Positions 2,132 to 49,297 of a stretch of DNA of 64,000 nucleotides are shown one piece after another. Numbering within the stretch: the stretch's first letter is position 1; every line of letters begins with the position of its first letter. The translations under genes were made by a program, and so were the position numbers. A model generated the notes under the pieces. The model was not told the origin of the DNA. It saw nothing but the letters and a program-made list of their open reading frames with translations, and ran no database searches. This DNA comes from a virus (Duplodnaviria > Heunggongvirae > Uroviricota > Caudoviricetes): the IMG/VR virus record IMGVR_UViG_3300028833_000126, positions 716 through 64,715 of that record; one strand, written 5' to 3'.

Positions 2132-5008
2132 TCAATCTAAGTATTTCACGACAGTGGAGGTTGAAATGCCGATTGCTTCTGCGATCTCGCCGTTTGTGTA
2201 ACCGGAATCCTGCATTGCCTTGATCTTCGCTATCTTAGCATCGGAGATTGAGCGTGTAGCTTTGGGTGTTGCATAATTTCGGATGACATCACCGTCTGCA
2301 TACTTCAGGATCTTCATCAGGTCATTTTCGGAGATTGCGCCGTTCTGGATTGCTTCCCACTCATCTTCGGACACAGAAATGCCGGATCGCTTTGCTCCGG
2401 TCTCTCTTCTCGCTTTCGTCAGTTCCTGCTGTGCAATCTTCTGTCGTTCTTTCTTCGACAAATCAGGATTCTCTTTTGCGATTTTGGAGATTCGTGCGTT
2501 TGCAACTAGCTGAGCTTGACGTTCTCTCGGAGCATTCTGTTCTGCGACGTTGAGCTGCGCCTGTAAGTGTTCCACTTCTTTGGCATACTTTTCGACAGCT
2601 TCTTTTGTTTTCTGAATTCTGCCAGTTGTAACGTACTCTTTTCGAGCATCGTTCGCCAAAGATTTCATGGAATTTGCGTAGTCTGCATACAGGAGCTCAA
2701 TTGGAGATCTGCCTTTGGAGACAAGCTGCATAGCATCGTCTGCTACAGCCATCTTCGTGGTCTTGATTGTACGGGTCTGGAGCTTCCCTTTGCTGTCCAC
2801 ATAGGTCTCGGGCTCCTTGCTTGTGTCCCAATACAACTTTCCCGTCTCCGGATCGATCTTCTGCATCCCCCGGTATTTCGGAACTCTGGCATCGGATTTT
2901 GCGGAAGAGATGATCGTAGCAGCACCAGTAGAGTACCGCCCATCCTCCGTATAGTGCCCCTGCCATCTGTTCTTAAGAGCGGGGATGTCGTTGTCGATCT
3001 CGGACTGTTTATAGTCCAGCTTATGCTTCGGAGCGTCGATAACAACCATGGAGTGTCGGACAGCTTTTGCAAGCTCCTCCGGACCAGCGCCCCCGATTGT
3101 CATGTCGGTAATGAGGTTAGAGACCCTCCCCATTTGCTGCTGCTTTTCGGCCTCAGACATAACTTTGAATTCATGCCCGTTGCGATAATAATGGAGATTC
3201 CCCTTATCATCCCTCCGACTCTCCGTATAACTATAATTGTCCTTCGGATCGAAGCCTTTAAGCCCCGGAAGTTCGGGAGTAGATGTAATGTTGGCCCGTC
3301 CGGAGAGCGGAATGACCATGACGGTATCCCCATCAAAGTCTGCTCCGGAGAGTCGCTCTGCAACTTTGGAGTTAATGCCTACGGCATCCATCGCATTCGG
3401 AGTGATAACTCTCTTGGCCTCCTCATTCTTGTCCGTAACCTTCAGGATCGGAATTTCGAATGTGCCCCCATGAGGATAACGAACAAGCGCTACCTTCTCG
3501 CCGGGTCGGAAATTAGGTGCATACACCTCGTCGTCCTTGAGCGAAGTGATCGGAAGGATTACCTGATAGCTCTGCCTCGGAAGTGCCGCAGCTTTCAGAT
3601 GAACAGCCGCCTTATCGCAGTCGTTTGCGAAGTTGATGAGCAGGTGCTTCTTGACTGTCGGATTGGTCAGAGCGGAGATCTCTTCGAACTCTGCCTGCTT
3701 ATCGATCTTAGCCAGCCGGAGCTGCTGCTCAACGAGCTTTCGGTTCTGTTTAGAGAGGAACTGGGACGGAAGATCGTGGCTCCACTCTCCCCAGTCGCCT
3801 TCGGCAGCGCGCTTGTTGATGACGGAGAGCTGCTTTTCACCGTTCTTATCGATGTAATATCTTTGTCCGCCCATGATAGGCGCATTCGGATCCGTCGGAT
3901 CTTCAATGCCTTCCTTGATGAGCGAGCCGAACGGGTTGTTCGGATTCTTCGTATCGATCGGCTTGAGAACACTCTTTGCGTCCTTCGTTGCACCCATCAT
4001 GGGAACAGACGAATTCTTGTTTGTGTTAAATATCAAGTCGACTCCGGGCGGAAAGTCCTTATCATCTCCGTAAACAGCCATACCCTTGATGTAATGCGTA
4101 CCATCAACAAGAATCCGGACCTGAGCATAAGTGGAGTTGCCGAGAGAAATATCTTCCGGCCCTCTCCGAATCTCAACGACACCGTCCTTGTCCTTGCCGC
4201 TCGGTTCCTGATCTGCATAACGAATCATGACACGCTTCGAATCAAGGGACTTCGGATATACCCAAGCCGGACGATACGTTTCGCCTCCGTCATCGGAGAT
4301 CATCTCGCCAACCTGACTGATTGCACCGTAGTTGTAAATATCTTTCTTCTCGGATCCGGGAGGGCACACCACCTTGAGCGTGGTCATCATGCCCTTATTC
4401 GTTGCCTGAGGAACTCGTCCGCCATAAGTCGGATAACCCTCCATCTCAAGAATCATCAGCGCATTATCAAGTGTGTTTCTCGTCACGCCGAGTCTTCGCT
4501 CAACATTCACGCCGACGTCAATCATGCCCTTGGAGTCGATTTCGGTCTTCAGATACTTTGCCGTATTGTAGGCAGAATTCATTCTCTCCTCAGACTTCGT
4601 GTTGAGAAGCGAACGGACCGTGGATTCGTTCAGTCCCATCTTCTCACCGATCTCGGTTGCACCCATTCCGCGCTCTTTCATACTCTTTGCCTGTTCAACA
4701 AGAATTGCGCGGCGATAGTTCTTTGCAACGGAGAGCTGCGAACGGAGCTTGGACGGAGACGGTTCTCCTTTGTAGTTGAGAATATCCAGCTCACGGGCAA
4801 TCTCGGACTCTGTCATACCCTTGGATTTCATCGAGTTGACACGGGAGATGAAGTCGCCGGTTCTCTGATACGGATTCTCACCAGAACCCCACGGATACCG
4901 TCCGGAGCGTCTCGGCATGCCGTAATGCTGCAAAATATCAATTTCACACTCGTCGAGGATCTCTCCCGTATGTTCATCCACGACGATGTTTTTGTCTACT
5001 TCAATCAT
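2132..5008 (-). CDS. YonO-like single-subunit RNA polymerase (two double-psi beta-barrels) with N- and C-terminal sigma-r4-like HTH modules
   Basis: beta-prime-like motif VALVRYPHGG...ITPNAMDAVG...GADFDGDTVMVIPL (compare NRAPTLHR...NADFDGDQMAVHVPL) at about aa 505-568. beta-like GGRVPQATNKGMMT (compare GRHGNKG) at aa 196-209 and PGVDLIFNTN...VPMMG. HTH repeats at aa 60-135 and aa 935-958 (GYTNGEIAEAIGISTSTVVKYL). RBS AGAGGAGGAAT. Confidence 0.6.
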   Translation of the reverse strand: MIEVDKNIVVDEHTGEILDECEIDILQHYGMPRRSGRYPWGSGENPYQRTGDFISRVNSMKSKGMTESEIARELDILNYKGEPSPSKLRSQLSVAKNYRRAILVEQAKSMKERGMGATEIGEKMGLNESTVRSLLNTKSEERMNSAYNTAKYLKTEIDSKGMIDVGVNVERRLGVTRNTLDNALMILEMEGYPTYGGRVPQATNKGMMTTLKVVCPPGSEKKDIYNYGAISQVGEMISDDGGETYRPAWVYPKSLDSKRVMIRYADQEPSGKDKDGVVEIRRGPEDISLGNSTYAQVRILVDGTHYIKGMAVYGDDKDFPPGVDLIFNTNKNSSVPMMGATKDAKSVLKPIDTKNPNNPFGSLIKEGIEDPTDPNAPIMGGQRYYIDKNGEKQLSVINKRAAEGDWGEWSHDLPSQFLSKQNRKLVEQQLRLAKIDKQAEFEEISALTNPTVKKHLLINFANDCDKAAVHLKAAALPRQSYQVILPITSLKDDEVYAPNFRPGEKVALVRYPHGGTFEIPILKVTDKNEEAKRVITPNAMDAVGINSKVAERLSGADFDGDTVMVIPLSGRANITSTPELPGLKGFDPKDNYSYTESRRDDKGNLHYYRNGHEFKVMSEAEKQQQMGRVSNLITDMTIGGAGPEELAKAVRHSMVVIDAPKHKLDYKQSEIDNDIPALKNRWQGHYTEDGRYSTGAATIISSAKSDARVPKYRGMQKIDPETGKLYWDTSKEPETYVDSKGKLQTRTIKTTKMAVADDAMQLVSKGRSPIELLYADYANSMKSLANDARKEYVTTGRIQKTKEAVEKYAKEVEHLQAQLNVAEQNAPRERQAQLVANARISKIAKENPDLSKKERQKIAQQELTKARRETGAKRSGISVSEDEWEAIQNGAISENDLMKILKYADGDVIRNYATPKATRSISDAKIAKIKAMQDSGYTNGEIAEAIGISTSTVVKYLD

Positions 5009-5568
5009 GCCGATTCCTCCTCTGTACGAATTTCTTCAATAAGATTGTCGAATTCTACGATTTTGTCCATAACGTCACGGATTGTCTGAGCAGAGGGCGT
5101 GTAGATCAGAATCTGACAGTTCTGATAAATCCTCAGCTCCATTTGAATGTCTTCCGGATCGACGTCATACTCCAAACAGAAAAGAGCCGCGTAAATATAA
5201 AGCTGCTCTTCATGTGCCGGAATAGATCCGCTCTTGTAATCATGAATGCGAAGAAAACCGTTCTCAAAGAGAATCGCGTCCGTCGTGCCGAAACAGTTGC
5301 GGGAGTAATATAAAGGCTGCTCTGCTGTCATGCCGAAGTCTACGGCATCGTTGACATACATATTGAGCGTGTCTTTCTTTCTCGCAAGTTTCTGCTTCAT
5401 GCGGATGCACTCTGCTGCGAATGCGTGTTTCTTCGATCCTTCTTCAGCCGCAAAATATCCATGGAACACTTCAGCCATCCGTGCAGGACTGTAGCGGACC
5501 CAGTGATACTTTGATGCGGAGAGGAAAGCATGCTTGCCTTCAATCTCAGAATGCTTGTTGAAGTGCAT
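5005..5568 (-). CDS. PD-(D/E)xK nuclease (Cas4/RecB-like fold)
   Basis: GTTDAILFENGFLRIHDYKSG matches the GxxD...(D/E)YK signature of the PD-(D/E)xK family; start overlaps the RNAP gene (ATGA). Confidence 0.5.
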   Translation of the reverse strand: MHFNKHSEIEGKHAFLSASKYHWVRYSPARMAEVFHGYFAAEEGSKKHAFAAECIRMKQKLARKKDTLNMYVNDAVDFGMTAEQPLYYSRNCFGTTDAILFENGFLRIHDYKSGSIPAHEEQLYIYAALFCLEYDVDPEDIQMELRIYQNCQILIYTPSAQTIRDVMDKIVEFDNLIEEIRTEEESA

Positions 5569-10957: not shown

Positions 10958-11030
10958 TAGGGGCGAAGGGACTCGAACCCTCAACCAACTGCGTATAAGA
11001 CAGGTGCTCTAACCATTGCGCTACGCCCCG
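10958..11030 (-). tRNA. tRNA with anticodon UAU (reads AUA, Ile-type), phage-encoded
   Basis: Minus-strand cloverleaf: acceptor GGGGCG/CGCCCC, D-arm GCGC-AATGGTTA-GAGC, anticodon stem CCTGT/GCAGT with loop CTTATAC (TAT at plus 10995-10997), T-arm GAGGG-TTCGAGT-CCCTT. A few mismatches, no encoded CCA. Confidence 0.55.
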
Positions 11031-28334: not shown

Positions 28335-28365
28335 TTTCATTATACGGCATGAAACTTTCGCGAAG
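28335..28365 (-). promoter_or_regulatory. conserved promoter-like element, copy 9
   Basis: TTCGCGAAAGTTTCATGCCGTATAATGAAACC. Confidence 0.5.
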
Positions 28366-29542
28366 AATATCTACTCGATACATAGTCTTGTTCGTTGAAC
28401 TGCTTCTTCTCCTTGAGCGCCCGCTTGATCGCAACATCAATCCCGGCAAAAGAACGAAGATGGAAGTAGTACAAAATATCATACGGCGTGTTGCGTCTGT
28501 CAATTCGGCCCGTCGCTTGCTTCAGTGTCTTGTAGGAATAATTCTGCGAGTAGAAGATCGTTGTATCCGTTGTGATGCAATTCCATCCCTCAGCTCCTGC
28601 GCTGTATTGAGACAGATATACCCAAGAGTCACCGCTGAGAGTTCTGACATCTTCGTGCTTATGTCCGTTCCACTCTGCATACATGATTCCTCGCTCTTCA
28701 CAGAAATTCCGAAGAATCTCAAGCTCGTAGTCGAAGTTATAAAATATAATAGCTTTCGGATGCTTCTTAAGTATCTTCTCAAGAGCCTCTACCCTGCTTG
28801 GATCGCTGTTGCAGACTTTTCTCTGTGCATAGCATAGCTCACCGGCAGTGTCAATTGGCTCACACTTCCAAGGATTCCACATGTCACGAGCAAGGCTTTT
28901 GTACTTCAAAATATCATACTCAACCATGACATCCTCATGCTTGCTCTCTGTTCGCTTTTTGTAGTCCATCTTCACGAGAATCTGATTGCGATATCGTTTC
29001 AGTTTATCCTGCTCGAGATACCTGTCAATCTTCGGAAAATTTGTGAACTGAGAATAGACGATATGCTCATGGACGAACTGAGTGCGATTCTTATAAAAGC
29101 CGTTCGCAATGAAAACCGGAATATAGTCTTTCCACGTGTCTCCCGGAGTTGCTGACAAGAGAATCCATCGGTTCTTCTTCACGATCTTGAGAAAACACTT
29201 CACCCAAGCTCCTGATCCTACAACACGCTGCTCATCAAATATAAAGAATGCGTCGGAGACACCGACGTATTTCTCAATGTTATTCCATGAGTCAACGACA
29301 ATGTCTCCGACAAACGGCATTCCAAACGGCTCACATTCCTCAGGCCACTCCTTCGTATCACGCTTCTTTGCAGTTGTGATAATATAAAGCGGCATCGAAG
29401 ACCCATGCTCACGGAAGTCTTTCTCGTAGTATGCAAGAGCTGTACGAGACTTTCCGGAACCAACGTCCCCGCAAAGAATGCAGCCGTTTTTCATTCGATT
29501 TACGGCGTCAATCTGATAGTCATCAAGAATTACATTCGGCAT
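28340..29542 (-). CDS. SF2 ATP-dependent helicase (DEAD/SNF2-like)
   Basis: Walker A GDVGSGKSRTAL, DExx box IFDEQ, motif VI QATGRIDRR. Confidence 0.65.
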   Translation of the reverse strand: MPNVILDDYQIDAVNRMKNGCILCGDVGSGKSRTALAYYEKDFREHGSSMPLYIITTAKKRDTKEWPEECEPFGMPFVGDIVVDSWNNIEKYVGVSDAFFIFDEQRVVGSGAWVKCFLKIVKKNRWILLSATPGDTWKDYIPVFIANGFYKNRTQFVHEHIVYSQFTNFPKIDRYLEQDKLKRYRNQILVKMDYKKRTESKHEDVMVEYDILKYKSLARDMWNPWKCEPIDTAGELCYAQRKVCNSDPSRVEALEKILKKHPKAIIFYNFDYELEILRNFCEERGIMYAEWNGHKHEDVRTLSGDSWVYLSQYSAGAEGWNCITTDTTIFYSQNYSYKTLKQATGRIDRRNTPYDILYYFHLRSFAGIDVAIKRALKEKKQFNEQDYVSSRYSSRKFHAV

Positions 29543-31390: not shown

Positions 31391-32509
31391 TTATTCTCCA
31401 ACAGAGTCAAGAATCTCCTTGATGCCAAAGAGTCCACCATATCCTTCGCCGTCGCCAGAGGTGATGATCGTCTTTACAGAGCCGTTGATGGCCTTAACTG
31501 CTGCTTCCTGAATATCCAGTTCACGATCACGGAAGTACTTGTCAGTGAGAGTCTCCTGATTCTCAAGCTCTGCTTTCTTCATTAGCTCAGCCTCTTCAAC
31601 CTGCATCTTAGCGATCTCAACACGGCTTCTCTGCTCTGCTTCGGCTTCATCACGCTTGATCTGTGCAACCTCTGCTTTTGCTTTCTGTGCATCGATCTGG
31701 GCCTGTGCTTCCTTCGCAACTTCATATGCCGCTGCATCTGCCTCAGCCTGTCTCTGGAGAAGCTCTTTCTGAGACTGTGCTTTCTGCTGGTCTACGATCT
31801 GCTGGTTGATTTCATCCTGCTTCTCTCTTTCCAGCTTTGCGAGTTCAACTTCATTCTGAGCCTCAGTCTTCTGGTCGATCTTAAGCTGAATATCTTCAGG
31901 TAGAATCAGAGTTCCGAGTTCGAATCGGATCAGCTCTACGCCGTAAATATCATAGAGGACCGTCTTCAGTACATCGGATACCTTCTGCTGGATCTCCGTT
32001 CTGCTTGCCTGTACGTCATACACCGAGTATTCCTGCGTTACACCGTTGAGTTTACCCTTGCTCAGACCATAAATATCATTGTTGATGATCGAGTCGAAAG
32101 ACTTCGTGCCAAATGACTTGATGATCTTGCCGATGTCAATCGGGCGAACACTGATGTAGACATCCGCATCGATGTTCTTACCTTCCTTCGAGGCGATAGA
32201 CATGGACATATCGACCTTATTGTCGCCTTCCGCAAGTCTAGTCCAATTCTCCGAGATGATCGTCGTAGGGTATCTCAGAACGTCCTGTGTTACAGGGTTT
32301 ACTGTGATTCGTCCTGTTCGCTCGTTGTCGATAACAGACGTTCCTTCAATGACATTGTCTTCAGGTGTTGCGGTACGGTCATAGACATATCCTACATAAC
32401 CGGCAGGGATGGTCTCGTGTGTCGCTGCATAGATAATGATTCCTCCAACAAGGCATACTGCGAGGAGGATGAGGGCGGTAATGAATTTCTTTGCTCCATT
32501 TGTCATTTT
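31391..32509 (-). CDS. SPFH/band-7 (flotillin/HflK-like) membrane protein
   Basis: Trimmed to MTNGAKKF; N-terminal TM, SPFH-like core, then a long Q/E/A/K coiled coil typical of flotillin-like proteins. Confidence 0.5.
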   Translation of the reverse strand, partial: KMTNGAKKFITALILLAVCLVGGIIIYAATHETIPAGYVGYVYDRTATPEDNVIEGTSVIDNERTGRITVNPVTQDVLRYPTTIISENWTRLAEGDNKVDMSMSIASKEGKNIDADVYISVRPIDIGKIIKSFGTKSFDSIINNDIYGLSKGKLNGVTQEYSVYDVQASRTEIQQKVSDVLKTVLYDIYGVELIRFELGTLILPEDIQLKIDQKTEAQNEVELAKLEREKQDEINQQIVDQQKAQSQKELLQRQAEADAAAYEVAKEAQAQIDAQKAKAEVAQIKRDEAEAEQRSRVEIAKMQVEEAELMKKAELENQETLTDKYFRDRELDIQEAAVKAINGSVKTIITSGDGEGYGGLFGIKEILDSVGE

Positions 32510-32519
32510 GTTTTCTCCT

Positions 32520-32624
32520 TTACTTTTTGAAAGTGTTTTTGAACCATTTGTAGATGGGATCCTTGAAACAGATTGCCAGAACAATGATGACAACCACAAG
32601 GATAATAATCATTCGGATAGGCAT
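32520..32624 (-). CDS. possible 34-aa transmembrane peptide
   Basis: MPIRMIIILVVVIIVLAICFKDPIYKWFKNTFKK with RBS GTGAGGTAAACA; sits between the SPFH gene and the upstream gene. Confidence 0.35.
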   Translation of the reverse strand: MPIRMIIILVVVIIVLAICFKDPIYKWFKNTFKK

Positions 32625-33568: not shown

Positions 33569-34096
33569 TTACATATCGAACGGCACATCATCGTCATCCG
33601 GAGCTTCCTCAGATGCCCAGTCAGCCTCGAGGATAGGTTCCGCAGTTCTTGCGTACATTTCGCTGAGCTGTGCAGAGATGCCGGATGCACCAGTCATGTT
33701 CTTCCACGGATACTGTCTCAGTACAACGTCAACCCTGTCGAACTCAACGCGGTCAAAGTTGGCAATGTTGTCTTCCGTGATCTGAATCCGTCTGTCATGC
33801 GTGAACTGAACGATCTTCGGCTTCACCCAATCGAGGTCTAGGCGGACCTTAACTTCGAGCGTGTAGAAGGGATCGCCATCTTCATTCTTCGGCATCTTGA
33901 TCTTGACATTCCAGCCGAGATCCTTGAGCTTCTGAGCTGCTTCTGCATCGTAGAAGCGGATTGTGAACTTGCGAGTGCCGTTTGTGTTGAACTGTGTCTT
34001 CTCACCGGCAAAGTTGCGATAGGTAATGTTGCTGTTTCTGAGACCGCTGATCTTGAGCTTGTTGCCTTCGAGAACTGTGTACTTGATTTCTTCCAT
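33569..34096 (-). CDS. putative single-stranded DNA-binding protein (non-canonical, acidic aromatic C-terminal tail)
   Basis: Ends ...ASEEAPDDDDVPFDM, resembling the SSB DDDIPF tail and the T7 gp2.5 acidic-Phe tail; immediately upstream of the polymerase gene. Confidence 0.35.
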   Translation of the reverse strand: MEEIKYTVLEGNKLKISGLRNSNITYRNFAGEKTQFNTNGTRKFTIRFYDAEAAQKLKDLGWNVKIKMPKNEDGDPFYTLEVKVRLDLDWVKPKIVQFTHDRRIQITEDNIANFDRVEFDRVDVVLRQYPWKNMTGASGISAQLSEMYARTAEPILEADWASEEAPDDDDVPFDM

Positions 34097-34134: not shown

Positions 34135-37100
34135 TTAGAATTTCGGTGTTTCAGGAGGCCAATCTGCTGGCGGCTCCTTATCAACTAACTTGTAATAGTC
34201 ACCGTAACCGCAAGCAATACCGACAGAATTGATCGTTTCAATCGCTTCATTTGCAAGAGCATCATAATAGCTTACGTCTATCATATCCTGCTTATTCAGC
34301 TCTTTCACGATCTCTGATTCGAGCCATCGGTAGCCCTTTGTTCCTGCTACGGCATAGTACTTATTGTCAGCATTCCGGTAGAGTACACCGCCTTCTCCAC
34401 CGGGAACGATCGGACAGAACTGCCCAATACGTCCTACGAAAATATAATTGTGAGACTTACTCTCTTTCTCACGAAGCTCGGTGAGTCTAACCTCCACCAT
34501 GTCGTCCGTGAGTTCATACCGCTTGAGGATCTTCTCCTTCGACACTTTTGCATCGGGTTCGAGCATCTTCTGCAAATCCTCAAGTTCTTTTACTTCAACC
34601 GCACTCAGCTGAGGCAGTTTCTCATTCATGTCAATGACGATGGACCCCTTTGCAACAGACTTTGTCTCGCAGTAATCATCGAACTTGAGCTCCTCACCGG
34701 AGAACAAGGTCTTAAATACATACGGGACTTGGAACTGTGTGCCAGTCGCGGTCCACCAAATATCATCGCCAGTCTTTTTGTCTTTGAGCGGCTCCTTGTA
34801 CTTTGCAACATACACTGCATCATTCACAAGGCAGAATTTATCGAAGTCTGCTTCTGTCTCGAACGAATATCCATACTCGTGACCAAACTTGATGACGAAA
34901 TTGCGAATCTCATCCGTCGCATTCGGTATCTTGATGGAGTCCGTCTTGATGTGAGCAACCTGATAACCTCTCTTCTGGACCTCGCTCTTAAGAAGTGTCA
35001 TAAAGAGTGCACCGCGTTTTGCAACGATATTGTCGACATTTCGAGGATCGCGGAACCGGTTTGTGAACTTCGCTGAGGTAAGACCGTAGATTGCGTTGAT
35101 GACGATCTTCAGTGCCTGAGCAAGACCGGGCGCATTATCATCCGTAAGCCAAGGCTTGAGAACGCCGTTTAGATAAGTTACTGCAAGATCGAAGTCCTTA
35201 TGCTTGATTGCAACACGTGACTCAACGACTTCCTCAAATATCCTTGTGTACTTTGGTCCGAATAAGACCTCAGCAATTGCACTGTGCGGATGCTGCGAGG
35301 AAATATCCCCATCCCAGACACCAAGATGAATTCCGGGTTCTGCATAGACACGTCCTCCTTCTCCGATCTCTTCTCCAAGATAAGTTGACTTGCCATATTC
35401 AAACTTATATCCCGGGAAGAACGGAAGAATGGAATATCCATCAGGCAACGCCACACACCCGTCTCCATCGTAAACCTCGTACGTAGGAAGTCCGTTCTCA
35501 TCAAACACGTGGAACACATACTTGTCGCCGAACTTCTCACGATACTCGGAATACTGTGTCCAACTGACAGGTTTCGAGAGATCTCTGTAGTTGAACTGAG
35601 TCTGCGGGTCTTTGTCCGATCCAAATATAATTTTCTCAGACAGCGAGTTGGTTGTGTCATTGACTGTTACTGTGCTGATACCGTGGAGAGCCTTAACAAG
35701 CTCAACCTGAATCTGCCTTGCCATAAAGTCTTCCTGCCGTGCGTTCCAGACCGCCTCTGTTGCGATGACGTCATTTGCACAGTATTCCGCAACTTTATCC
35801 CAAAGCTCTTCAGGTACCGGCTCGTCCCAAGGCAAACCAAGCTCCTGATGGTGAATTCCGAGCTCAATCTCAAATTTCTTCAGGGACTGTTTCTTCGAAG
35901 AGAAGTCGTAAATATCCGTGTAAGACAAGTTATACGCATTGCCGAACTTACCGCCGATTTTAGCGCCTTTCTCTGAATCAATAATCGTCTTTGAAAGATG
36001 ATAGAGCTGCTCGTTTGTGTAACCGAGGATTCTGGCATACAGAATGTGGTTATCATACTGTCGACAGTTGAAACCTATCAACTTGTATTGCGTGAGCTCT
36101 TCAATTTCCTGTGGCGTCGGATTAATCATTCTGACAACAGGCTGATCATCTCCAAGCGCCTTGTAGCACACAACAAACAAATTAATGAAAACTTCAACGT
36201 CAAAAAATATCAAAATATCCTTTTTGATTTGATATTCGTCTCCCGGAGGCTCACTGTCCTCAGATTTGAACTTCATCTCAGCAACGAGCTTTGTGCAATA
36301 GTCTGCGTTATGTGTACTGTTCGAGGCGAACGTGAGAACGGATTGGAACATGTCGCTCACATCATAATGAACACCGCTTGCATAAGCATCGTCAAGGACT
36401 TTCTTGATGAAGTCAACACTGGGTTTTGTTCCGGGATGGTACTCTTTGCAGAGGTTACGCTTAATAAGCGTACGAATGGCCTTTTCGTTTTTAACAGTCT
36501 CCGTGTTTACCAATTTATCTTCTCCTTTCAATGGTAAACCTGAGCTGATTTCGGCTATCTGAAGATCATTGCACTTCGTCAGCTTTCTTCTCAGGGTCAT
36601 GTTTCCCGTAAACACCTTAATCTCGATTCTGTCGTCAAAGATGCGGCTCAGTTTTGTCGGATCTCCTTTATAAATATAATGGAGATGGATGCCCTGACCG
36701 CTCTTGGACAGCTCTCCATACGTAGGAGGCCATCTGCTGACTGCTTCCAGATTCTTCTCGAGTGACTTATTGCCGTTCTCGTCTGGAATATCAAAATCGA
36801 TCACAATGTGATTTACAGGAACTCTGACATAGTGAAGCTGCGATGTGTCAAGATCCTTCAGTTTCGTCTGTACGTTCGACCATTTCCTCTGCGGGATTCC
36901 TTCTTCAGAGGCGTATTGCGCTGGATAATCTGTGGCAAGAATATCAAAGAGAGATGCCTGATCCCTTGGCTTGAACCAGCATTCGGGTTTCTTCTCGCCG
37001 TCAGACTTTTTGGAACTTTTTTCAGAAAATTCTTCCAGGGCAAATTTTTCCTTTCTGAATCCACCGTACCATTTGCGAACACGACCTCCGTCATCTGCAT

Positions 37101-38343
37101 TGGCACGTTCCTTGACTTCCTTGAAGTAACTCTTGAGCTCCTCTTTAAATAAGCGATACGACAGTGGATACGGTACATTCGCATCCTTGTTGTACGTCTG
37201 GTACTTTTCCCAAGCACCTTTGAGAGTCGTTCCATCGTCACGCTCGAAAGTCGAGTAATAGTACTCAACGAAATTGTAGAAATCGTTCGAGGCACCCATC
37301 ATTCTCATCGGTATGTAGTTATCATATCGATTCGGGTCCTCAAGGTAAACGTCGAGACAATGTTTTGCAATTGCTCCAAGCTCGAACTTGACCTGCGATT
37401 TGAGATGGTCATACTCTTTTCGCGGAATCTTATCGCCTGTTGGGATCACATCAATGAGACGTCGGATAATACCTGACTTTGCATCTGTGATTCGCACAGG
37501 TTTGTTCGTACCCATGAACATGAAGCTGTTGAAGCGAGTGGAGTACTGTGTCTTATGCTTCTCGTTCACCAGCATCTCATCGTGGGAGGCTATTGAGTTC
37601 AATCGTGTATTGTCTTCAATATGGCTCAAGTCTCCGTCCTGTTGGATTGCAACAAGCGGATTTGAACGGAATGCTTCAAGGGCAAATGCTGCGTTGGAAT
37701 TACCGAGTGACTTAGCATCGAAAACACAATAATGCCCGACAAAGAGAAGTTGAATAATGTCAAGAATGGTCGATTTACCTGTACCCGGATCTCCATAGAA
37801 CACCATGAACTTTTGAATGTTCTTGGAGTCCCCTGCGACCACAGCACCAATTGCCCATTCTATCTTCTGTCTTTCTTCCGGAGAATATAAAACAGTCATA
37901 AATCTCTCCCATGCCGGGTACTCTCCTGCCTCAAGCGGATACGGCAAGCGTTTTGATGCATAGTCCTTTTTATTTACTTCATCATTTTGAAAGACCAATT
38001 TCTCATCGAGTGGATGGAATGAGTCACGCATCTGCTTCTGACAGTACTTGTGCCATCTATCAGCGGTTCCAGTCGAGGCATAGCGCATATACATGACGTG
38101 AGCAATATCGCCACTTGCAGACTTGTTGTACTCCTCTGCATAGTCATGAAGCTCTCTGTCTACAAGGTCAATTAAGTCCTGCTCACTTGTAGACCAGAGC
38201 CCCCTCTCCTCAATCCATACAGCATAGAAATCGCCGCCTTTGATCATCAAGTCTTCGCTTGGGTTACAAATGATGAATTCTGGGTAGATCTCTACATGAC
38301 CACGCTTAGTTGAACGGGTAAACACCCGGAAGAAGTCCGCCAT
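34135..38343 (-). CDS. replication fusion protein: SF3 (D5/P4-like) helicase, AEP-type primase and family-B DNA polymerase with 3'-5' exonuclease
   Basis: Walker A FYGDPGTGKST (aa 183-192); AEP motifs IVIDFDIPDE and SGQGIHLHYIY (about aa 515-560); exonuclease motifs FFDVEV, FNCRQYDNHILY and YCANDVIATE; polymerase motifs GDISSQHPHS, KIVINAIYG and HIKTDS. Confidence 0.75.
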   Translation of the reverse strand: MADFFRVFTRSTKRGHVEIYPEFIICNPSEDLMIKGGDFYAVWIEERGLWSTSEQDLIDLVDRELHDYAEEYNKSASGDIAHVMYMRYASTGTADRWHKYCQKQMRDSFHPLDEKLVFQNDEVNKKDYASKRLPYPLEAGEYPAWERFMTVLYSPEERQKIEWAIGAVVAGDSKNIQKFMVFYGDPGTGKSTILDIIQLLFVGHYCVFDAKSLGNSNAAFALEAFRSNPLVAIQQDGDLSHIEDNTRLNSIASHDEMLVNEKHKTQYSTRFNSFMFMGTNKPVRITDAKSGIIRRLIDVIPTGDKIPRKEYDHLKSQVKFELGAIAKHCLDVYLEDPNRYDNYIPMRMMGASNDFYNFVEYYYSTFERDDGTTLKGAWEKYQTYNKDANVPYPLSYRLFKEELKSYFKEVKERANADDGGRVRKWYGGFRKEKFALEEFSEKSSKKSDGEKKPECWFKPRDQASLFDILATDYPAQYASEEGIPQRKWSNVQTKLKDLDTSQLHYVRVPVNHIVIDFDIPDENGNKSLEKNLEAVSRWPPTYGELSKSGQGIHLHYIYKGDPTKLSRIFDDRIEIKVFTGNMTLRRKLTKCNDLQIAEISSGLPLKGEDKLVNTETVKNEKAIRTLIKRNLCKEYHPGTKPSVDFIKKVLDDAYASGVHYDVSDMFQSVLTFASNSTHNADYCTKLVAEMKFKSEDSEPPGDEYQIKKDILIFFDVEVFINLFVVCYKALGDDQPVVRMINPTPQEIEELTQYKLIGFNCRQYDNHILYARILGYTNEQLYHLSKTIIDSEKGAKIGGKFGNAYNLSYTDIYDFSSKKQSLKKFEIELGIHHQELGLPWDEPVPEELWDKVAEYCANDVIATEAVWNARQEDFMARQIQVELVKALHGISTVTVNDTTNSLSEKIIFGSDKDPQTQFNYRDLSKPVSWTQYSEYREKFGDKYVFHVFDENGLPTYEVYDGDGCVALPDGYSILPFFPGYKFEYGKSTYLGEEIGEGGRVYAEPGIHLGVWDGDISSQHPHSAIAEVLFGPKYTRIFEEVVESRVAIKHKDFDLAVTYLNGVLKPWLTDDNAPGLAQALKIVINAIYGLTSAKFTNRFRDPRNVDNIVAKRGALFMTLLKSEVQKRGYQVAHIKTDSIKIPNATDEIRNFVIKFGHEYGYSFETEADFDKFCLVNDAVYVAKYKEPLKDKKTGDDIWWTATGTQFQVPYVFKTLFSGEELKFDDYCETKSVAKGSIVIDMNEKLPQLSAVEVKELEDLQKMLEPDAKVSKEKILKRYELTDDMVEVRLTELREKESKSHNYIFVGRIGQFCPIVPGGEGGVLYRNADNKYYAVAGTKGYRWLESEIVKELNKQDMIDVSYYDALANEAIETINSVGIACGYGDYYKLVDKEPPADWPPETPKF

Positions 38344-38603
38344 TACGCATCACAGGCTCCTCCATCAGATTCGTCGTTTTCCACACCGTGGACCTCTTCT
38401 TTGAGCTTTTCGATCTCCTCCTGCAGGTAGTTCTCGCTTCTCTTTCTCTCGGCAAGCTCAAGTGCAAGCCCAAGGGAGTAGAGAACGAGAAAACCAACGG
38501 TTACTTTAAGACCGAAGATACGACGCTTATTCTTCTTGATTGTTTTTCGAATATCATCCATATGAAAATCGATGACATTACTGATAAGATTTTCGTTTCC
38601 CAT
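38343..38603 (-). CDS. small membrane coiled-coil protein
   Basis: 86 aa; stop overlaps the polymerase start. Confidence 0.45.
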   Translation of the reverse strand: MGNENLISNVIDFHMDDIRKTIKKNKRRIFGLKVTVGFLVLYSLGLALELAERKRSENYLQEEIEKLKEEVHGVENDESDGGACDA

Positions 38604-39817: not shown

Positions 39818-40786
39818 TCACACCTTCTTGTACGGAATTTTACTGTAGACGATTTCAGAGCAGTTGAAGTCAAGCCACACCGCATTGTTCTCACCGAAGA
39901 CAAAGTCACGAACAGACTTCTGGCTAAGATCACCGACACCGAAATCGACATAATTCTTGTTATCGTCATTCGGATCATAGACCCAACCGAACTGTTCCCC
40001 CGCCTGTGTCTTTTCGAAGCCAAGCGCCTCGTAAACCTCATTAAGTCTGAGAACACGATTTGCAACAAGTCTGTCCGTCATCTCAGCCATCTTGCGGTTG
40101 AGGAACATAGCATTGTACATAGCGTCTTTCTGCCAGTACTTGCTGTCTTCATTGAAGCACCGTGCGAAGTCACTGAGCTGATAGTTCTCCTTCGGCTTCT
40201 TGGTCGTCACAGTCTCCTCCTTGCCATTCTCGTCGGTCTTCGTCTCCTCGACTTCTTCCATCTTGTCGGCAAAGCGCAGTTCCTTGTCAACCTCCTCGCC
40301 ATACTTCTCGACAACTTTCTTGCGATAGTCATCGAACTCCTTGACAAGGACGCCGTTTGCAGCGAGGAGACCTGCGTTACGATTGGACAGGATTCTGTGA
40401 GAGGTGAGGACACAGGCAATAGAGAACGCACCCATCAGGACAACAGGAGCATAGAGCTTTGCAACTTCTCCCGCGCCTTTCAGATAACCGATTGTGACGT
40501 CATGCTTCATGTCTTCTTCGGTGTACCGAGACTCCGGAAGGATTTCGAACCCCTTCTCTTCTGCTTCTACAATATGCGCTCTCTTGCCCTTGGCTTCCGC
40601 AATGATTCGCTTCGGTTCTTCAAGGGCCTTCTCCGTCTTCTTTCCGGCACGCCATGCGAATACTACGGTCGTGATACCAGATGCGATAGCGAGTGCAACG
40701 AAGATCTCAGGCGAGTGCTTCTGTGCACCAAGTTTGGCGTTCGTTGCAATGTTCTTCATGCCAGTTGTGATTTTTTCGAATTTCAT
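39818..40786 (-). CDS. membrane-anchored protein, member 1 of a three-gene paralog family
   Basis: TM after a short N-terminus, long helical region, conserved C-terminus LNEVYEALGFEKTQAGEQFGWVYD shared with the 41427 and 43244 genes. Confidence 0.5.
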   Translation of the reverse strand: MKFEKITTGMKNIATNAKLGAQKHSPEIFVALAIASGITTVVFAWRAGKKTEKALEEPKRIIAEAKGKRAHIVEAEEKGFEILPESRYTEEDMKHDVTIGYLKGAGEVAKLYAPVVLMGAFSIACVLTSHRILSNRNAGLLAANGVLVKEFDDYRKKVVEKYGEEVDKELRFADKMEEVEETKTDENGKEETVTTKKPKENYQLSDFARCFNEDSKYWQKDAMYNAMFLNRKMAEMTDRLVANRVLRLNEVYEALGFEKTQAGEQFGWVYDPNDDNKNYVDFGVGDLSQKSVRDFVFGENNAVWLDFNCSEIVYSKIPYKKV

Positions 40787-41426: not shown

Positions 41427-42239
41427 TTAGATTTCAACATAACCGAACACACCTGGATCGATAAGCTTTGCGTTCGGTCTGATTGTATAGACGGGCTTGC
41501 CATCCATGATTGTCGTGGAAACATCAAAGCTTGCCTGATCGGAAGATTTGAAGCAGTCGTCAAATCTCCACCCGTATGCCTCTCCGATTCCAGTTAAACC
41601 ATGGCCAATGATCTCATATGCTTCATTCAGAGTCACTTCGTCACCAGCATTGAGTCTGCGATTGATCTCATTGACCGCTGCATCGAGAGTATTCTTAGTT
41701 ACCAGGAATGGCTTGCCTTCAAGTCCATCGAACGTCAGATCATAGCACCAGTATTTCCCTTCTTCAGGGACGAACTCTGGAATCACGTCCGGCTTCGGAG
41801 TTTCTTTCAGCTTCTTCTCGACAACCTTATCATCGATCTCCTTGGCCTTCTCTTCGCCTACAACATCCTTTGCTGCATCGACATAGTCGGCAATGTTCTT
41901 GGATGCCATCTCGGAAATTGCACATGCAGCCGTACCGAGCTTTGCAATACGTTTATCGTTTTCGACGGCAGATGCAACGAGGAAGAGAGTTCCGCCGATC
42001 AGAGCGCTTGCAGGAGCCGTAAAATGCTTCGCTGCGATCTTGCCCTTCTCAACACCATCGATCTCTTCTCCGGTCTCCGCCTTCTTATCTTCGAGTTCTT
42101 TCTTGAATTTCGGAATTTCCGTACCGAGCAAATATCCACCCGTCACGAGAAGGATCCCTCCAAATGCCGTAGCAATCTTGGGCCAATGCTTGTTGAGAGT
42201 CTTGCCGACATTTTTGATAATTTCTTTTGCTGTGCTCAT
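41427..42239 (-). CDS. membrane-anchored protein, member 2 of the paralog family
   Basis: C-terminus LNEAYEIIGHGLTGIGEAYGWRFDD aligns with members 1 and 3. Confidence 0.5.
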   Translation of the reverse strand: MSTAKEIIKNVGKTLNKHWPKIATAFGGILLVTGGYLLGTEIPKFKKELEDKKAETGEEIDGVEKGKIAAKHFTAPASALIGGTLFLVASAVENDKRIAKLGTAACAISEMASKNIADYVDAAKDVVGEEKAKEIDDKVVEKKLKETPKPDVIPEFVPEEGKYWCYDLTFDGLEGKPFLVTKNTLDAAVNEINRRLNAGDEVTLNEAYEIIGHGLTGIGEAYGWRFDDCFKSSDQASFDVSTTIMDGKPVYTIRPNAKLIDPGVFGYVEI

Positions 42240-43243: not shown

Positions 43244-44026
43244 TTAAATTTCACACATCTCAAAACCATAGCGTGCTCTGCAAATTGGCTGGACGACATA
43301 TGATCCGTCACCAGAGCATGTGTAAGCGAAATCAAGCCAAGAACTTGCATAGCGACCGTCAACATCATTGTATATGGACTCATAACTCCAGCCAATGTCT
43401 TGTGCTTTAAGCCGATCAATACCGTAGTCAGAAGGTTCGATGTCGAAATATCCAATGACATCCCAAAGCGTTACGCTACCAATCAGATCAAGATGACGAT
43501 TAATGCGCACGACAGCGTTTGCGATATCGAATCTTGTAGCCATGAAGCTGATGTCTGGGCAATCTTCATAAAGATCCTTCAAGACCGCATTAACTCTTTT
43601 TTCTCCTGTTTCGATATCTGTATATTCAACTCCTTCATCCGGCAGCTTTTCCTCTTCAATCGCTTCTCTGACAGAAACATCAGCCTCTTCGCCATTGATC
43701 TCACCATTCTTAAGCCGATAGTTCTTATATGCCTGCTGAACCGCGACATATGCGCCTGTCAGACTTGCCTGCGTATTGAGATCCATGCAGTGTGCACCAA
43801 CCCCACAAGCCACAGACACAGCAGCACAGCCGATTGCCGGACAAAACACCTTTGCGCCAGTCACGACCTTGTCCTTCTTCGACATCTCAGGGTTTGCATC
43901 GAGAGCCTCTTTGAACTTCGGACCCTCCTTAGCCGCAAATATCACGGCTGCGATTGTTGCTCCGGAGCCGAGAACGGTAAGGACCGTCGGCAGGATTTTC
44001 CGGATCATGTTGCTTGCTTTGCTCAT
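43244..44026 (-). CDS. membrane-anchored protein, member 3 of the paralog family
   Basis: Trimmed to MSKASNMIRKI preceded by GAAAGGAGAAATCACA; C-terminus LWDVIGYFDIEPSDYGIDRLKAQDIGWSYE. Confidence 0.5.
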   Translation of the reverse strand: MSKASNMIRKILPTVLTVLGSGATIAAVIFAAKEGPKFKEALDANPEMSKKDKVVTGAKVFCPAIGCAAVSVACGVGAHCMDLNTQASLTGAYVAVQQAYKNYRLKNGEINGEEADVSVREAIEEEKLPDEGVEYTDIETGEKRVNAVLKDLYEDCPDISFMATRFDIANAVVRINRHLDLIGSVTLWDVIGYFDIEPSDYGIDRLKAQDIGWSYESIYNDVDGRYASSWLDFAYTCSGDGSYVVQPICRARYGFEMCEI

Positions 44027-44074
44027 TGTGATTTCTCCTTTCATAATTATAGTTGAATGAGCTTAAAAACTTTG

Positions 44075-47945: not shown

Positions 47946-49213
47946 TCAGATAACCTTTCCCTCCAAATTTCTGAATGACCTGATCTTTGCCTCATTCGTT
48001 GCCTCAGCGTAAATATTCAAAGTTATCGAAATATCAGAATGACCCATCACTTCTTGAATCACCTTTACGTTACTTTCGTTCTCGCACATTCTGGTACAGA
48101 ACGTATGCCTGAGATCATGAGCGCTCAAAAGCGGAAGAAGAACCGGATCCCGATGTTCTCTTTGAGCTCGTTCTATCTCTTCATCGTTGCACTTTTCTGC
48201 AAGCATCTTTAAAGCAACAGTTACGCTCCCTTCGTCGAGACATTTGCCAGTCCTTCTCACAAATATAAAACCGCTGCAATCATCGACTGTTTCGCTCCTT
48301 ATTCTCATGCGATCCTGTAAATACTTCTCTTCAAGCAGTACTTCCATAACAGATTGAAACATCGGAATCGTTCTTATACCACTTGATGACTTTGGAGCAG
48401 CGATGTGCTCTCTGTACTTATCCTCGCCACTTGCTCTATAATATACGAGCTGCCGATTGATATAGATGAGCCTATTTGTAAAGTCGCAGTCGTCCCATGT
48501 GAGCGCTCGTGCTTCCCCGATTCTGCAACCAGTACCAAGCAAGAAAACGATCAGACGATACCATTTGCGATACTTCTGATGCTCTCTTAAGTATTCCAAA
48601 AATATCTTTTGCTGTTCTTCGGTTAAAGCTTTATCCTCAGCTCTTTCGATACTTTTTCGATTCTTAAACACTGTGGACATGACCCCATCAACTGGATTTG
48701 ATCGTATGAGATTGTCTCTCACGGCAATATTAAAAAGAGGATGCAAAATTAGATTCACATTTCTAATCGTTCCTTGCGACAGTTTGTCTTTGTCGACCAT
48801 TTTGGTGTACAGTTTTAAAATATCACTGTAGTGAATCGAGCCGACACTTCTTTTTCCGAGAGTATTTTCAACGTACCAAGACCAGATCTTTCTGTAATGC
48901 ACTCTTGTCTGCTCTCGAAGATCCGTTTTTGTCTTCATATACTCGTCAAAGTATTGATTCAAAGTAACCTTATCCGCGTCGTAAATGTTAATCTCATCCA
49001 CATCTGCTCGCAATGCTTTCATTTCCATATCCCTGAGACAAATATCACAGGACTTGCCTTCTGGAACTGAGTCAGTTGCCACGAGTTTCCAGCTATAAAG
49101 CCATCGATCAATTCCGTTATGGTCCTTATACTTATAGGCATACCTCCCATCAGATCTTTGATACTCGCCTTTTCTCAGTTTTCTGTTCTTTGAATCTCTT
49201 CTGTCTGCCATTT
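47946..49213 (-). CDS. int: tyrosine site-specific integrase
   Basis: Catalytic signature TGCRIGEARAL (box I Arg), LLSAHDLRHTFCTRM (H-x-x-R), VMGHSDISITLNIYAE (Tyr); trimmed to MADRRDSKN preceded by AAAAGGAG. Confidence 0.85.
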
Positions 49214-49297
49214 TGAACTCCTTTTTAGTAAACAGAAAAGAGACCCTGATAAGCATAATCATTATACTATATCAGAGTCTCCCCTGTCAACGATTTA

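Follow-up and report, generated by a model that had tools for sequence, protein, structure and literature searches.

A predicted GP55-type helicase-primase-polymerase replicase encoded as a single chain in phage DNA

The window, the whole 64,000-nucleotide stretch of phage DNA analysed here, carries one very long ORF in which an earlier note had read an SF3 helicase, an archaeo-eukaryotic primase (AEP) and a DNA polymerase of family B (PolB). Is this a single gene, are the three domains what they seem, and is their union new? The coordinates and length claimed for the ORF match the ORF list exactly, and its start codon is ATG. The strand, left unstated in the earlier note, is minus, the plus-strand translation being riddled with stops, and all the quoted motifs were located in the claimed order in the minus-strand translation (Table 1). 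An 86-aa ORF upstream shares its stop with the start ATG (TAATG overlap), and the N-terminus aligns with the N-termini of homologues. In independent assemblies (Logan SRR28623930, ENA ERZ28613658 and Logan ERR3220217) the ORF is unbroken and flanked by the same genes, which answers the concern, raised with the original proposal, that the single polypeptide might reflect a chimera or frameshift; the ORF is likewise uninterrupted in isolate phage genomes. The replicase ORF is real, not a chimera and well outside the reach of chance.

Table 1. Features of the predicted replicase and its neighbourhood (positions in the window; residues of the translated ORF).
Feature	Position	Strand	Residues or length	Basis
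GP55-type helicase-primase-polymerase replicase (predicted), complete ORF	34135..38343	minus	1402 aa + stop	ORF list, translation, full-length phrog_4210 match, 38% identity to GP55
N-terminal beta-rich/alpha domain	37984..38343	minus	1-120	AlphaFold model, homologue conservation
D5-like SF3 helicase	37024..37983	minus	about 121-440	
Low-complexity Lys/Glu/Ser-rich linker	36934..37023	minus	about 441-470	
AEP (PriS-like) primase catalytic domain	36544..36933	minus	about 471-600	
Helical accessory domain (aHD), four helices	36265..36543	minus	about 601-693	AlphaFold, GP55 alignment
DEDD 3'-5' proofreading exonuclease subdomain of PolB	35644..36264	minus	about 694-900	
PolB palm, fingers, thumb and C-terminal region	34138..35643	minus	about 901-1402	
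Clade-specific insertion, exonuclease/palm motif A boundary	35419..35571	minus	925-975	alignment gaps
Walker A FYGDPGTGKST		minus	182-192	minus-strand translation
AEP motif IVIDFDIPDE		minus	513-522	minus-strand translation
AEP motif SGQGIHLHYIY		minus	548-558	minus-strand translation
Exo I FFDVEV		minus	713-718	minus-strand translation
Exo II FNCRQYDNHILY		minus	758-769	minus-strand translation
Exo III YCANDVIATE		minus	854-863	minus-strand translation
Polymerase motif A GDISSQHPHS		minus	1012-1021	minus-strand translation
Polymerase motif B KIVINAIYG		minus	1079-1087	minus-strand translation
Polymerase motif C HIKTDS		minus	1131-1136	minus-strand translation
Phage ssDNA-binding/annealing-type protein, downstream neighbour	33569..34096	minus	175 aa	PF24083 Phage_ssDNA_bind, E 2e-30
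SF2-type helicase, same replication module	28340..29542	minus	400 aa	phrog_62 DNA helicase, E 5e-66; Pfam Helicase_C

A search of PHROGs matched the protein end to end with phrog_4210 (E = 0, 1816 bits), residues 3-1375 aligning with positions 2-1279 of the 1304-position profile. A full-length homologue (match covering at least 80%) was found in 252 phage records, mostly annotated 'DNA primase/polymerase', which is also the SEA-PHAGES label for homologues, and about 250 finished, isolate-derived phage genomes contain the same full-length fusion. Metagenomic protein clusters with the fusion number more than 8000; among their representatives, 8000 of the 8000 scored were significant, and the match was full length in 120 of the 120 listed. 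In the databases, its nearest relatives are proteins from viromes of the human gut (faecal) and mouth (oral). A nucleotide search of a phage genome collection, which does not include the window phage, returned only a 200-nt patch in Arthrobacter phages, 74% identical.

This type of fusion was described in gp55 of Lactococcus phage 1706 by Kazlauskas et al. 2016 (PMC4889955). Zhang et al. 2025 expressed and purified GP55 as one polypeptide, a 'four-in-one replicase' with helicase, RNA primase, polymerase and 3'-5' exonuclease activities, and demonstrated de novo replication of ssM13 DNA (PMC12205980). BLASTP aligned residues 6-1375 of the window protein with residues 10-1297 of GP55 at 38% identity (E = 0), and both share, in the same order, an N-terminal domain, SF3 helicase, PriS-like AEP, aHD, and PolB exonuclease and polymerase. 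The GP55 residues found essential by mutation correspond here to K190 (K189 in GP55), D518 (D509), Y660 (Y655), F672 (F667), D715 (D712), E717 (E714) and D1013 (D949), and these are invariant in a 123-sequence alignment, save that Y660 is Phe in one sequence. From this homology, the ORF very probably encodes the replicative enzyme of the phage, a helicase-primase-polymerase homologous to GP55. The architecture is not new; because its family was noted in 2016 and biochemically tested in 2025, the window protein adds one more member to a type already known.

The N-terminal domain is conserved in homologues (32% identical to GP55) and is modelled by AlphaFold with strands at 5-51 and helices at 54-75 and 93-103 (pLDDT about 80-90); the GP55 paper includes it in the 'helicase domain' (1-439) (PMC12205980). 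The D5/P4-like SF3 helicase of the earlier note was recovered by Pfam DUF5906 (residues 182-295, E 1e-10) and by three primase-helicase families of PHROGs, whose helicase halves align with residues 76-451 (E 1e-24 to 3e-31). Its AAA+-like core, of D5-type fold, bears Walker A (G184-T192, including K190), a candidate Walker B (D236/D238), a candidate sensor-1, or motif C (N280), and a candidate arginine finger (R294/R295). A possible winged-helix-like region at about 353-430, modelled as a helix and beta-hairpin region at 374-429, closes the domain; here the Pox_D5 C-terminal model PF03288 gave a weak match (353-412, E 0.025, 15.4 bits, under the 21.4-bit cut-off). The linker that follows is poorly conserved (19% identity to GP55), with pLDDT below 50 at residues 436-453, and the domain arrangement in the AlphaFold model of the N-terminal half is uncertain (pTM 0.46). 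Searches of the PDB with the single sequence and with a 67-sequence family profile gave no match for the helicase or the primase.

No other part of the protein is as well conserved as the AEP domain, which shares 61% identity with the PriS-like domain of GP55. On an AEP fold it carries motif I (DxD, D516-x-D518), motif II (SxxGxH; S546..G549-x-G551-x-H553) and the acidic residue of motif III, with D571 or E574 as the candidate; neither DxD nor SxGxGxH varies among 123 homologues. Together with a match to phrog_3022 'DNA primase' (residues 488-579, E 6e-4), these features uphold the primase claimed earlier. The Pfam AEP models (Prim-Pol, DNA_primase_S and similar) gave no match at E ≤ 1; the domain is too divergent for them, and AEP membership rests on fold, motifs and GP55 homology. 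The aHD is a fourth functional element, not picked up in the earlier note, with AlphaFold helices at 620-630, 643-655, 663-674 and 680-688, and its Y660 and F672 align with Y655 and F667 of GP55. In some relatives the primase accessory domain is duplicated in tandem, suggesting continued evolution of this domain. The GP55 priming motif 5'-CCAAC-3' is not enriched in the window (79 sites versus 83 ± 10 expected by chance) and is uninformative.

In the C-terminal half, the DEDD exonuclease motifs (Exo I, D715/E717; Exo II, N759/D764; Exo III, Y854/D858) lie N-terminal to polymerase motifs A (D1013), B (K1079-x3-N1083-x2-Y1086-G1087) and C (K1133-T-D1135-S), as in family B. A motif B of the form K-x3-N-[SA]-x-YG and a motif C containing TDS are family-B signatures. 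Motif C reads KTDS rather than the canonical DTDS, the first Asp being replaced by Lys, and the active GP55 has the same KTDS. The fold, with exonuclease, palm, fingers and thumb, is that of PolB rather than PolA: structures of family-B enzymes align over 370-430 residues including palm and fingers, and those of family-A enzymes over 170-185 residues of the exonuclease only. With a match to phrog_1252 (E 2e-43), these motifs and alignments agree with the complete PolB originally proposed. The PDB sequence searches returned only E. coli Pol II, weakly, around motifs B and C (E 1e-3 to 5e-3). The domain check by Pfam that the earlier note had suggested came out in part: DUF5906 alone passed the cut-off, recovering the helicase, but the AEP models and DNA_pol_B, DNA_pol_B_exo1 and DNA_pol_B_2 had no match at E ≤ 1, because both domains are too divergent for the models. 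Since PHROGs, the fold search and direct homology recover AEP and PolB, the misses were not taken as refutation.

Neither GP55 nor gp59 of Arthrobacter phage Giantsbane has the insertion of about 50 aa, which is present in 121 of 121 close metagenomic relatives. It is modelled as a helix and beta-hairpin (pLDDT about 90; model residues 236-286) and presumably occupies much the same place as the TPR1 region of phi29 polymerase. The C-terminal helical segment is variable. These two are the only local peculiarities of the protein.

Could a polymerase of another kind, or a dead primase, hide behind these domains? A divergent family-A polymerase (T7- or Pol I-like) at the C-terminus is extremely unlikely. 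Motifs A and B superficially resemble the family-A patterns 'DxSxxE' and 'K..N...YG', but the sole PDB sequence match is to Pol II across motifs B and C, both of which have the family-B form, and the family-A reading of motifs A to C was rejected since family-A structures align over the shared exonuclease alone. Both Kazlauskas 2016 (PMC4889955) and Zhang 2025 (PMC12205980) also assign the domain to PolB. It is very unlikely, too, that the AEP is catalytically inactive and serves in origin binding or as a structural element, with priming by a protein as in phi29 or primer-free synthesis as in piPolB. The failure of Pfam primase models, the lack of a PriL, helix-bundle or zinc-finger accessory domain, and the GP55 authors' comparison of PolB motifs to phi29 (PMC12205980) would fit such a reading; against it stand the invariant motifs and high conservation of the domain. 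Moreover, in GP55 both RNA primer synthesis and de novo replication are lost in D509A and in mutants of the aHD (Y655, F667), and constructs that retain PolB without a functional primase domain show zero de novo synthesis (PMC12205980), which also speaks against a piPolB-like mode.

Only the general rarity of 1400-aa ORFs uniting three replication enzymes might instead point to an assembly or frameshift artefact joining helicase-primase and polymerase genes. The chance of this is negligible: the uninterrupted ORF recurs with the same neighbours in independent assemblies, about 250 isolate-derived genomes and thousands of metagenomic clusters carry it, and GP55 was purified as a single polypeptide (PMC12205980). 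The artefact was rejected on the independent contigs and isolate genomes.

For the GP55-type replicase, a mechanism can be proposed by homology to GP55. The D5-like SF3 helicase would couple NTP hydrolysis to duplex opening; in GP55, the helicase uses UTP or dTTP and confers strand-displacement ability (PMC12205980). On the single strand thus exposed, the AEP and aHD would synthesize short primers of RNA; priming by GP55 begins with GTP, and its sites, for example 5'-CCAAC-3', are only loosely specified (PMC12205980). Then the family-B polymerase would extend these with dNTPs, with proofreading by the DEDD 3'-5' exonuclease. Because GP55 is a dimer in which primase and polymerase can cooperate in trans (PMC12205980), one polypeptide species may supply a minimal replisome, with probable help from the ssDNA-binding protein next to it and the SF2 helicase close by. 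At 38% identity, quantitative properties such as the helicase NTP preference, priming site and oligomeric state may differ from those of GP55.

Like GP55, the window protein has the KTDS motif C and is accompanied by an ssDNA-binding protein and an SF2 helicase. Unlike GP55 of phage 1706 (Fremauxvirus), it is 85 residues longer, has the 50-aa insertion between exonuclease and palm, has a different and longer helical segment at 1238-1301, and reads GTGKST rather than GTGKGT in Walker A. The insertion, GKST Walker A and C-terminal helical segment could confer a distinct processivity or strand displacement, oligomeric state or NTP preference; that the gut-virome clade differs from GP55 in working mode, and not only in sequence, is nevertheless rather doubtful.

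Other full-length homologues are the actinophage 'DNA primase/polymerase' proteins (e.g. Giantsbane gp59; 42-48% identity) of Arthrobacter clusters AM, AU and AW, Gordonia DJ, Streptomyces BI, Microbacterium EL and Rhodococcus CC. They belong to the same phrog_4210, and their genomes share the RdRP/YonO-like HTH protein; they differ in lacking the 925-975 insertion and in having high-GC Actinobacteria as hosts, whereas the GC content of the window is 42-47%. The best structural matches for the N-terminal half are D5/P4-alpha-type primase-helicases. Vaccinia D5, the SaPI5 primase-helicase, the NrS-1 primase-polymerase and ASFV C962R combine a D5-like SF3 core with an AEP, as here, but in this type the primase is N-terminal to the helicase, the accessory domain is a helix-bundle or PriCT instead of an aHD, and no PolB is fused. 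In 94% of helicase-primase fusions it is the primase that stands N-terminal (PMC4889955), so the earlier remark that a helicase before the primase is uncommon holds, although this exact fusion was already described in the same paper. Pas55 of Actinoplanes phage phiAsp2 is an SF3 helicase, DnaG primase and PolA fusion (PMC4889955), an analogous three-in-one polypeptide that is non-homologous, having DnaG instead of AEP and family A instead of B, and is of independent origin. The stand-alone PolBs (phrog_1252) of Enterococcus phages (phiSHEF10-like) and Escherichia phages BRET and ChristophMerian are 23-25% identical to the PolB domain across residues about 681-1200, and have no fused helicase or primase.

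The SSB-like neighbour and SF2 helicase of the earlier note were likewise borne out by Pfam and PHROGs (Table 1). The former belongs to phrog_4787, called a single-strand annealing protein in PHROGs, and is 31% identical to orf66 of phage 1706; its gene is directly downstream here, as against about 4 kb away in phage 1706. The SF2 helicase is 39% identical to orf67 of phage 1706 (E 2e-101). The synteny of the neighbourhood is repeated in independent contigs. The window phage carries an integrase, a difference from phage 1706, and is siphovirus-like and probably temperate; it groups with Lactococcus phage 1706, Faecalibacterium phage FP_oengus and the actinophage supercluster. A 958-aa RdRP-like protein (2132-5008) accompanies the replicase in these phages; it gave no PDB sequence match and was rejected as a new find, having been described by Koert et al.

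The practical value of these results is modest, though the clade-specific polymerase insertion could interest developers of GP55-like enzymes for primer-free DNA amplification. They add little to basic biology, the single-chain helicase-AEP-PolB replicase having been recognised computationally in 2016 and biochemically characterised in 2025. What they supply is the correct function of a protein known to Pfam only as DUF5906, with its active sites placed to the residue, and confirmation that the window comes from a phage in the 1706 / FP_oengus / actinophage-supercluster lineage.

The replicase ORF is uninterrupted in the ORF listing, begins with ATG and encodes 1402 aa, and its N-terminus aligns with the N-termini of homologues. 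The earlier note had described it as a single ORF with an SF3 helicase, an archaeo-eukaryotic primase (AEP) and a DNA polymerase of family B (PolB). All of the motifs quoted there were found, in the stated order, in the minus-strand translation, while translation of the plus strand gave stops throughout; the strand is thus the sole correction. The stop codon of an 86-aa ORF directly upstream overlaps the replicase start codon (TAATG), which suggests translational coupling. A family search with this small ORF gave no match, and an ORF of similar size precedes the replicase in the related contigs L003 and L004.

Features of the window and motifs of the replicase; motif positions are residues of the minus-strand translation
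Feature	Position	Strand	Database match
RdRP/YonO-like protein, 958 aa	2132-5008	-	phrog_4291 'RNA-dependent RNA polymerase', full length, E=0
187-aa ORF	5005-5568	-	DUF2800, partial, E 9e-8
tRNA-Ile, anticodon TAT	10958-11030	-	
SF2 helicase	28340-29542		
SPFH/Band_7-domain protein	31391-32599	-	Pfam E 1e-14; phrog_200 'lipoprotein'
ssDNA-binding gene, directly downstream of replicase	33569-34096	-	Pfam Phage_ssDNA_bind, E 2e-30
Replicase	34135-38343	-	phrog_4210 'DNA polymerase', E=0
86-aa ORF	38343-38603	-	
DUF6353 gene 1	39818-40786	-	phrog_2152
DUF6353 gene 2	41427-42239	-	phrog_2152
DUF6353 gene 3	43244-44044	-	phrog_2152
Tyrosine-integrase-like gene	47946-49262	-	phrog_1, E 1e-61
Endolysin, tail, Dit, tape-measure genes	52.9-64 kb		
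Walker A FYGDPGTGKST	residues 182-192	-	
IVIDFDIPDE	residues 513-522	-	
SGQGIHLHYIY	residues 548-558	-	
FFDVEV	residues 713-718	-	
FNCRQYDNHILY	residues 758-769	-	
YCANDVIATE	residues 854-863	-	
GDISSQHPHS	residues 1012-1021	-	
KIVINAIYG	residues 1079-1087	-	
HIKTDS	residues 1131-1136	-	

Chimeric assembly of the ORF is ruled out by four lines of evidence. The profile phrog_4210 (1304 positions) matches residues 3-1375 with 1816 bits. A tblastn search of 50,697 phage records matched 400, and in 252 of these a single match spans at least 80% of the query; the phages are those of Arthrobacter, Gordonia, Streptomyces, Microbacterium, Curtobacterium and Lactococcus, together with human-derived siphoviruses, and most of the records label the homologue 'DNA primase/polymerase'. 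Every one of the 8000 cluster representatives scored in a search of metagenome proteins was significant, and the 120 that were listed are full length (1307-1509 aa), with 59-99% identity where reported. The ORF also occurs with the same neighbours in the independent assemblies Logan SRR28623930, ENA ERZ28613658 and Logan ERR3220217. The interval therefore contains a real gene.

For domain assignment, PHROGs were more informative than Pfam. The Pfam check proposed in the earlier note recovered the helicase, with DUF5906 matching residues 182-295 (E 1e-10) and a below-threshold Pox_D5 C-terminal match at residues 353-412, and returned no primase or PolB model even at E<=1; taken by itself, it would have seemed to count against two of the three domains. 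The C-terminal helicase halves of three PHROG 'DNA primase' families align with residues 76-451 (E 8e-24 to 3e-31). Residues 488-579 are matched by phrog_3022 'DNA primase' (E 6e-4), and residues 705-1372 by phrog_1252 'DNA polymerase' (E 2e-43). The structure was predicted as two halves from a 67-sequence alignment, giving models of residues 1-700 (pLDDT 79, pTM 0.46) and 690-1402 (pLDDT 88, pTM 0.79). Structural matches to the N-terminal half include, after better ones, papillomavirus E1, AAV Rep40 and SV40 large T antigen. Family-B polymerases align with the C-terminal half over 370-430 residues, whereas the alignment with family-A polymerases or stand-alone DEDD nucleases is limited to ~110-190 residues, corresponding to the exonuclease. 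The sole match in PDB sequence searches was to E. coli Pol II and covered motifs B and C. Together, these matches support the order SF3 helicase, AEP and PolB with proofreading exonuclease, as originally read from the sequence.

The literature search settled the identity of the protein. GP55, the 1317-aa 'four-in-one replicase' of Lactococcus phage 1706, was purified and shown to have DNA polymerase activity (abolished by D949A), 3'-5' exonuclease activity (D712A/E714A), UTP/dTTP-dependent helicase activity (K189A) and RNA primase activity (D509A), with a preferred GTP start at 5'-CCAAC-3' (Zhang et al., NAR 2025, PMC12205980). Priming also requires a new four-helix accessory domain (aHD) and is abolished in the aHD mutants at Y655 and F667; GP55 forms a dimer, its primase and polymerase can work together in trans, it carries out de novo replication of ssM13 DNA, and it has >1000 homologues, mostly in human-associated phages (PMC12205980). 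The gp55 fusion had been described before that, in a study in which the primase lies N-terminal to the helicase in 94% of fusions (Kazlauskas et al., NAR 2016, PMC4889955).

The window replicase is collinear with GP55, with 38% identity over residues 6-1375 (E=0); the AEP (61%) and polymerase (55%) are the most similar domains and the helicase (31%) the least. GP55 K189, D507/D509, Y655, F667, D712/E714 and D949 correspond to K190, D516/D518, Y660, F672, D715/E717 and D1013. In an alignment of 123 sequences none of these varies apart from Y660, which is F in one sequence. The unusual motif C, KTDS in place of DTDS, is common to the window replicase and the active GP55. Differences include GKST rather than GKGT in Walker A, a longer and different helical segment at residues 1238-1301, and a ~50-aa insertion (residues 925-975) that follows the exonuclease and precedes palm motif A. 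The insertion, for which the model shows a helix and beta-hairpin at high confidence, is absent from GP55 and Arthrobacter phage Giantsbane gp59 and present in 121/121 close metagenomic relatives. These differences are variation within one family, not a new architecture. In two homologous relatives (P0010 and P0011; 1503-1509 aa; 2519 and 2511 bits, close to 75-79%-identical relatives), a 94-98-aa insert after the position equivalent to residue 659 repeats the aHD sequence (YDVxDL...FAKxST..DYC..LV..M.F), and is therefore a tandem duplication of the aHD.

The replication module is conserved with phage 1706: the ssDNA-binding protein shares 31% identity with orf66 and the SF2 helicase 39% with orf67 (E 2e-101). 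The SPFH/Band_7 gene inside the module is also found in the 99%-identical L003, and is not evident in the L004 portion examined. The three paralogous DUF6353 genes just upstream of the replicase are kept in both contigs.

The window derives from a phage or prophage, with practically all genes on the minus strand. The integrase-like gene separates the early/replication region from the lysis and structural genes; this suggests a temperate phage or a prophage. GC content is 42-47%, and the replicase has its nearest database relatives in faecal and oral viromes of humans (54.6% and 47.8% identity); the putative host is of Firmicutes type, gut or oral. The single tRNA-Ile reads the rare AUA codon.

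The RdRP-like protein has HTH motifs near its two termini (~residues 100-137 and 920-957) and occurs in ~250 phage records, with a genus breakdown nearly identical to that of the full-length replicase matches. It was proposed to be a YonO/crAss-like two-barrel RNA polymerase and the signature of a phage group joining Streptomyces BI, Arthrobacter AM/AU/AW, Gordonia DJ, Rhodococcus CC and Microbacterium EL with Lactococcus 1706-like and Faecalibacterium phages (Koert et al., bioRxiv 10.1101/842583). A PDB sequence search with it gave no match, and the literature search found no biochemistry. Directly upstream lies the 187-aa ORF; in related Streptomyces phages, the gene adjoining that for the RdRP-like protein bears the annotation exonuclease, exonuclease/helicase or ATP-dependent helicase.

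The window replicase is a member of a family already described and biochemically characterised. By homology with GP55, its SF3 domain would unwind DNA and displace the strand, the AEP and aHD would lay down short RNA primers, and PolB would extend and proofread them; a dimer may divide priming and extension among its subunits, with the ssDNA-binding protein and SF2 helicase as likely helpers.
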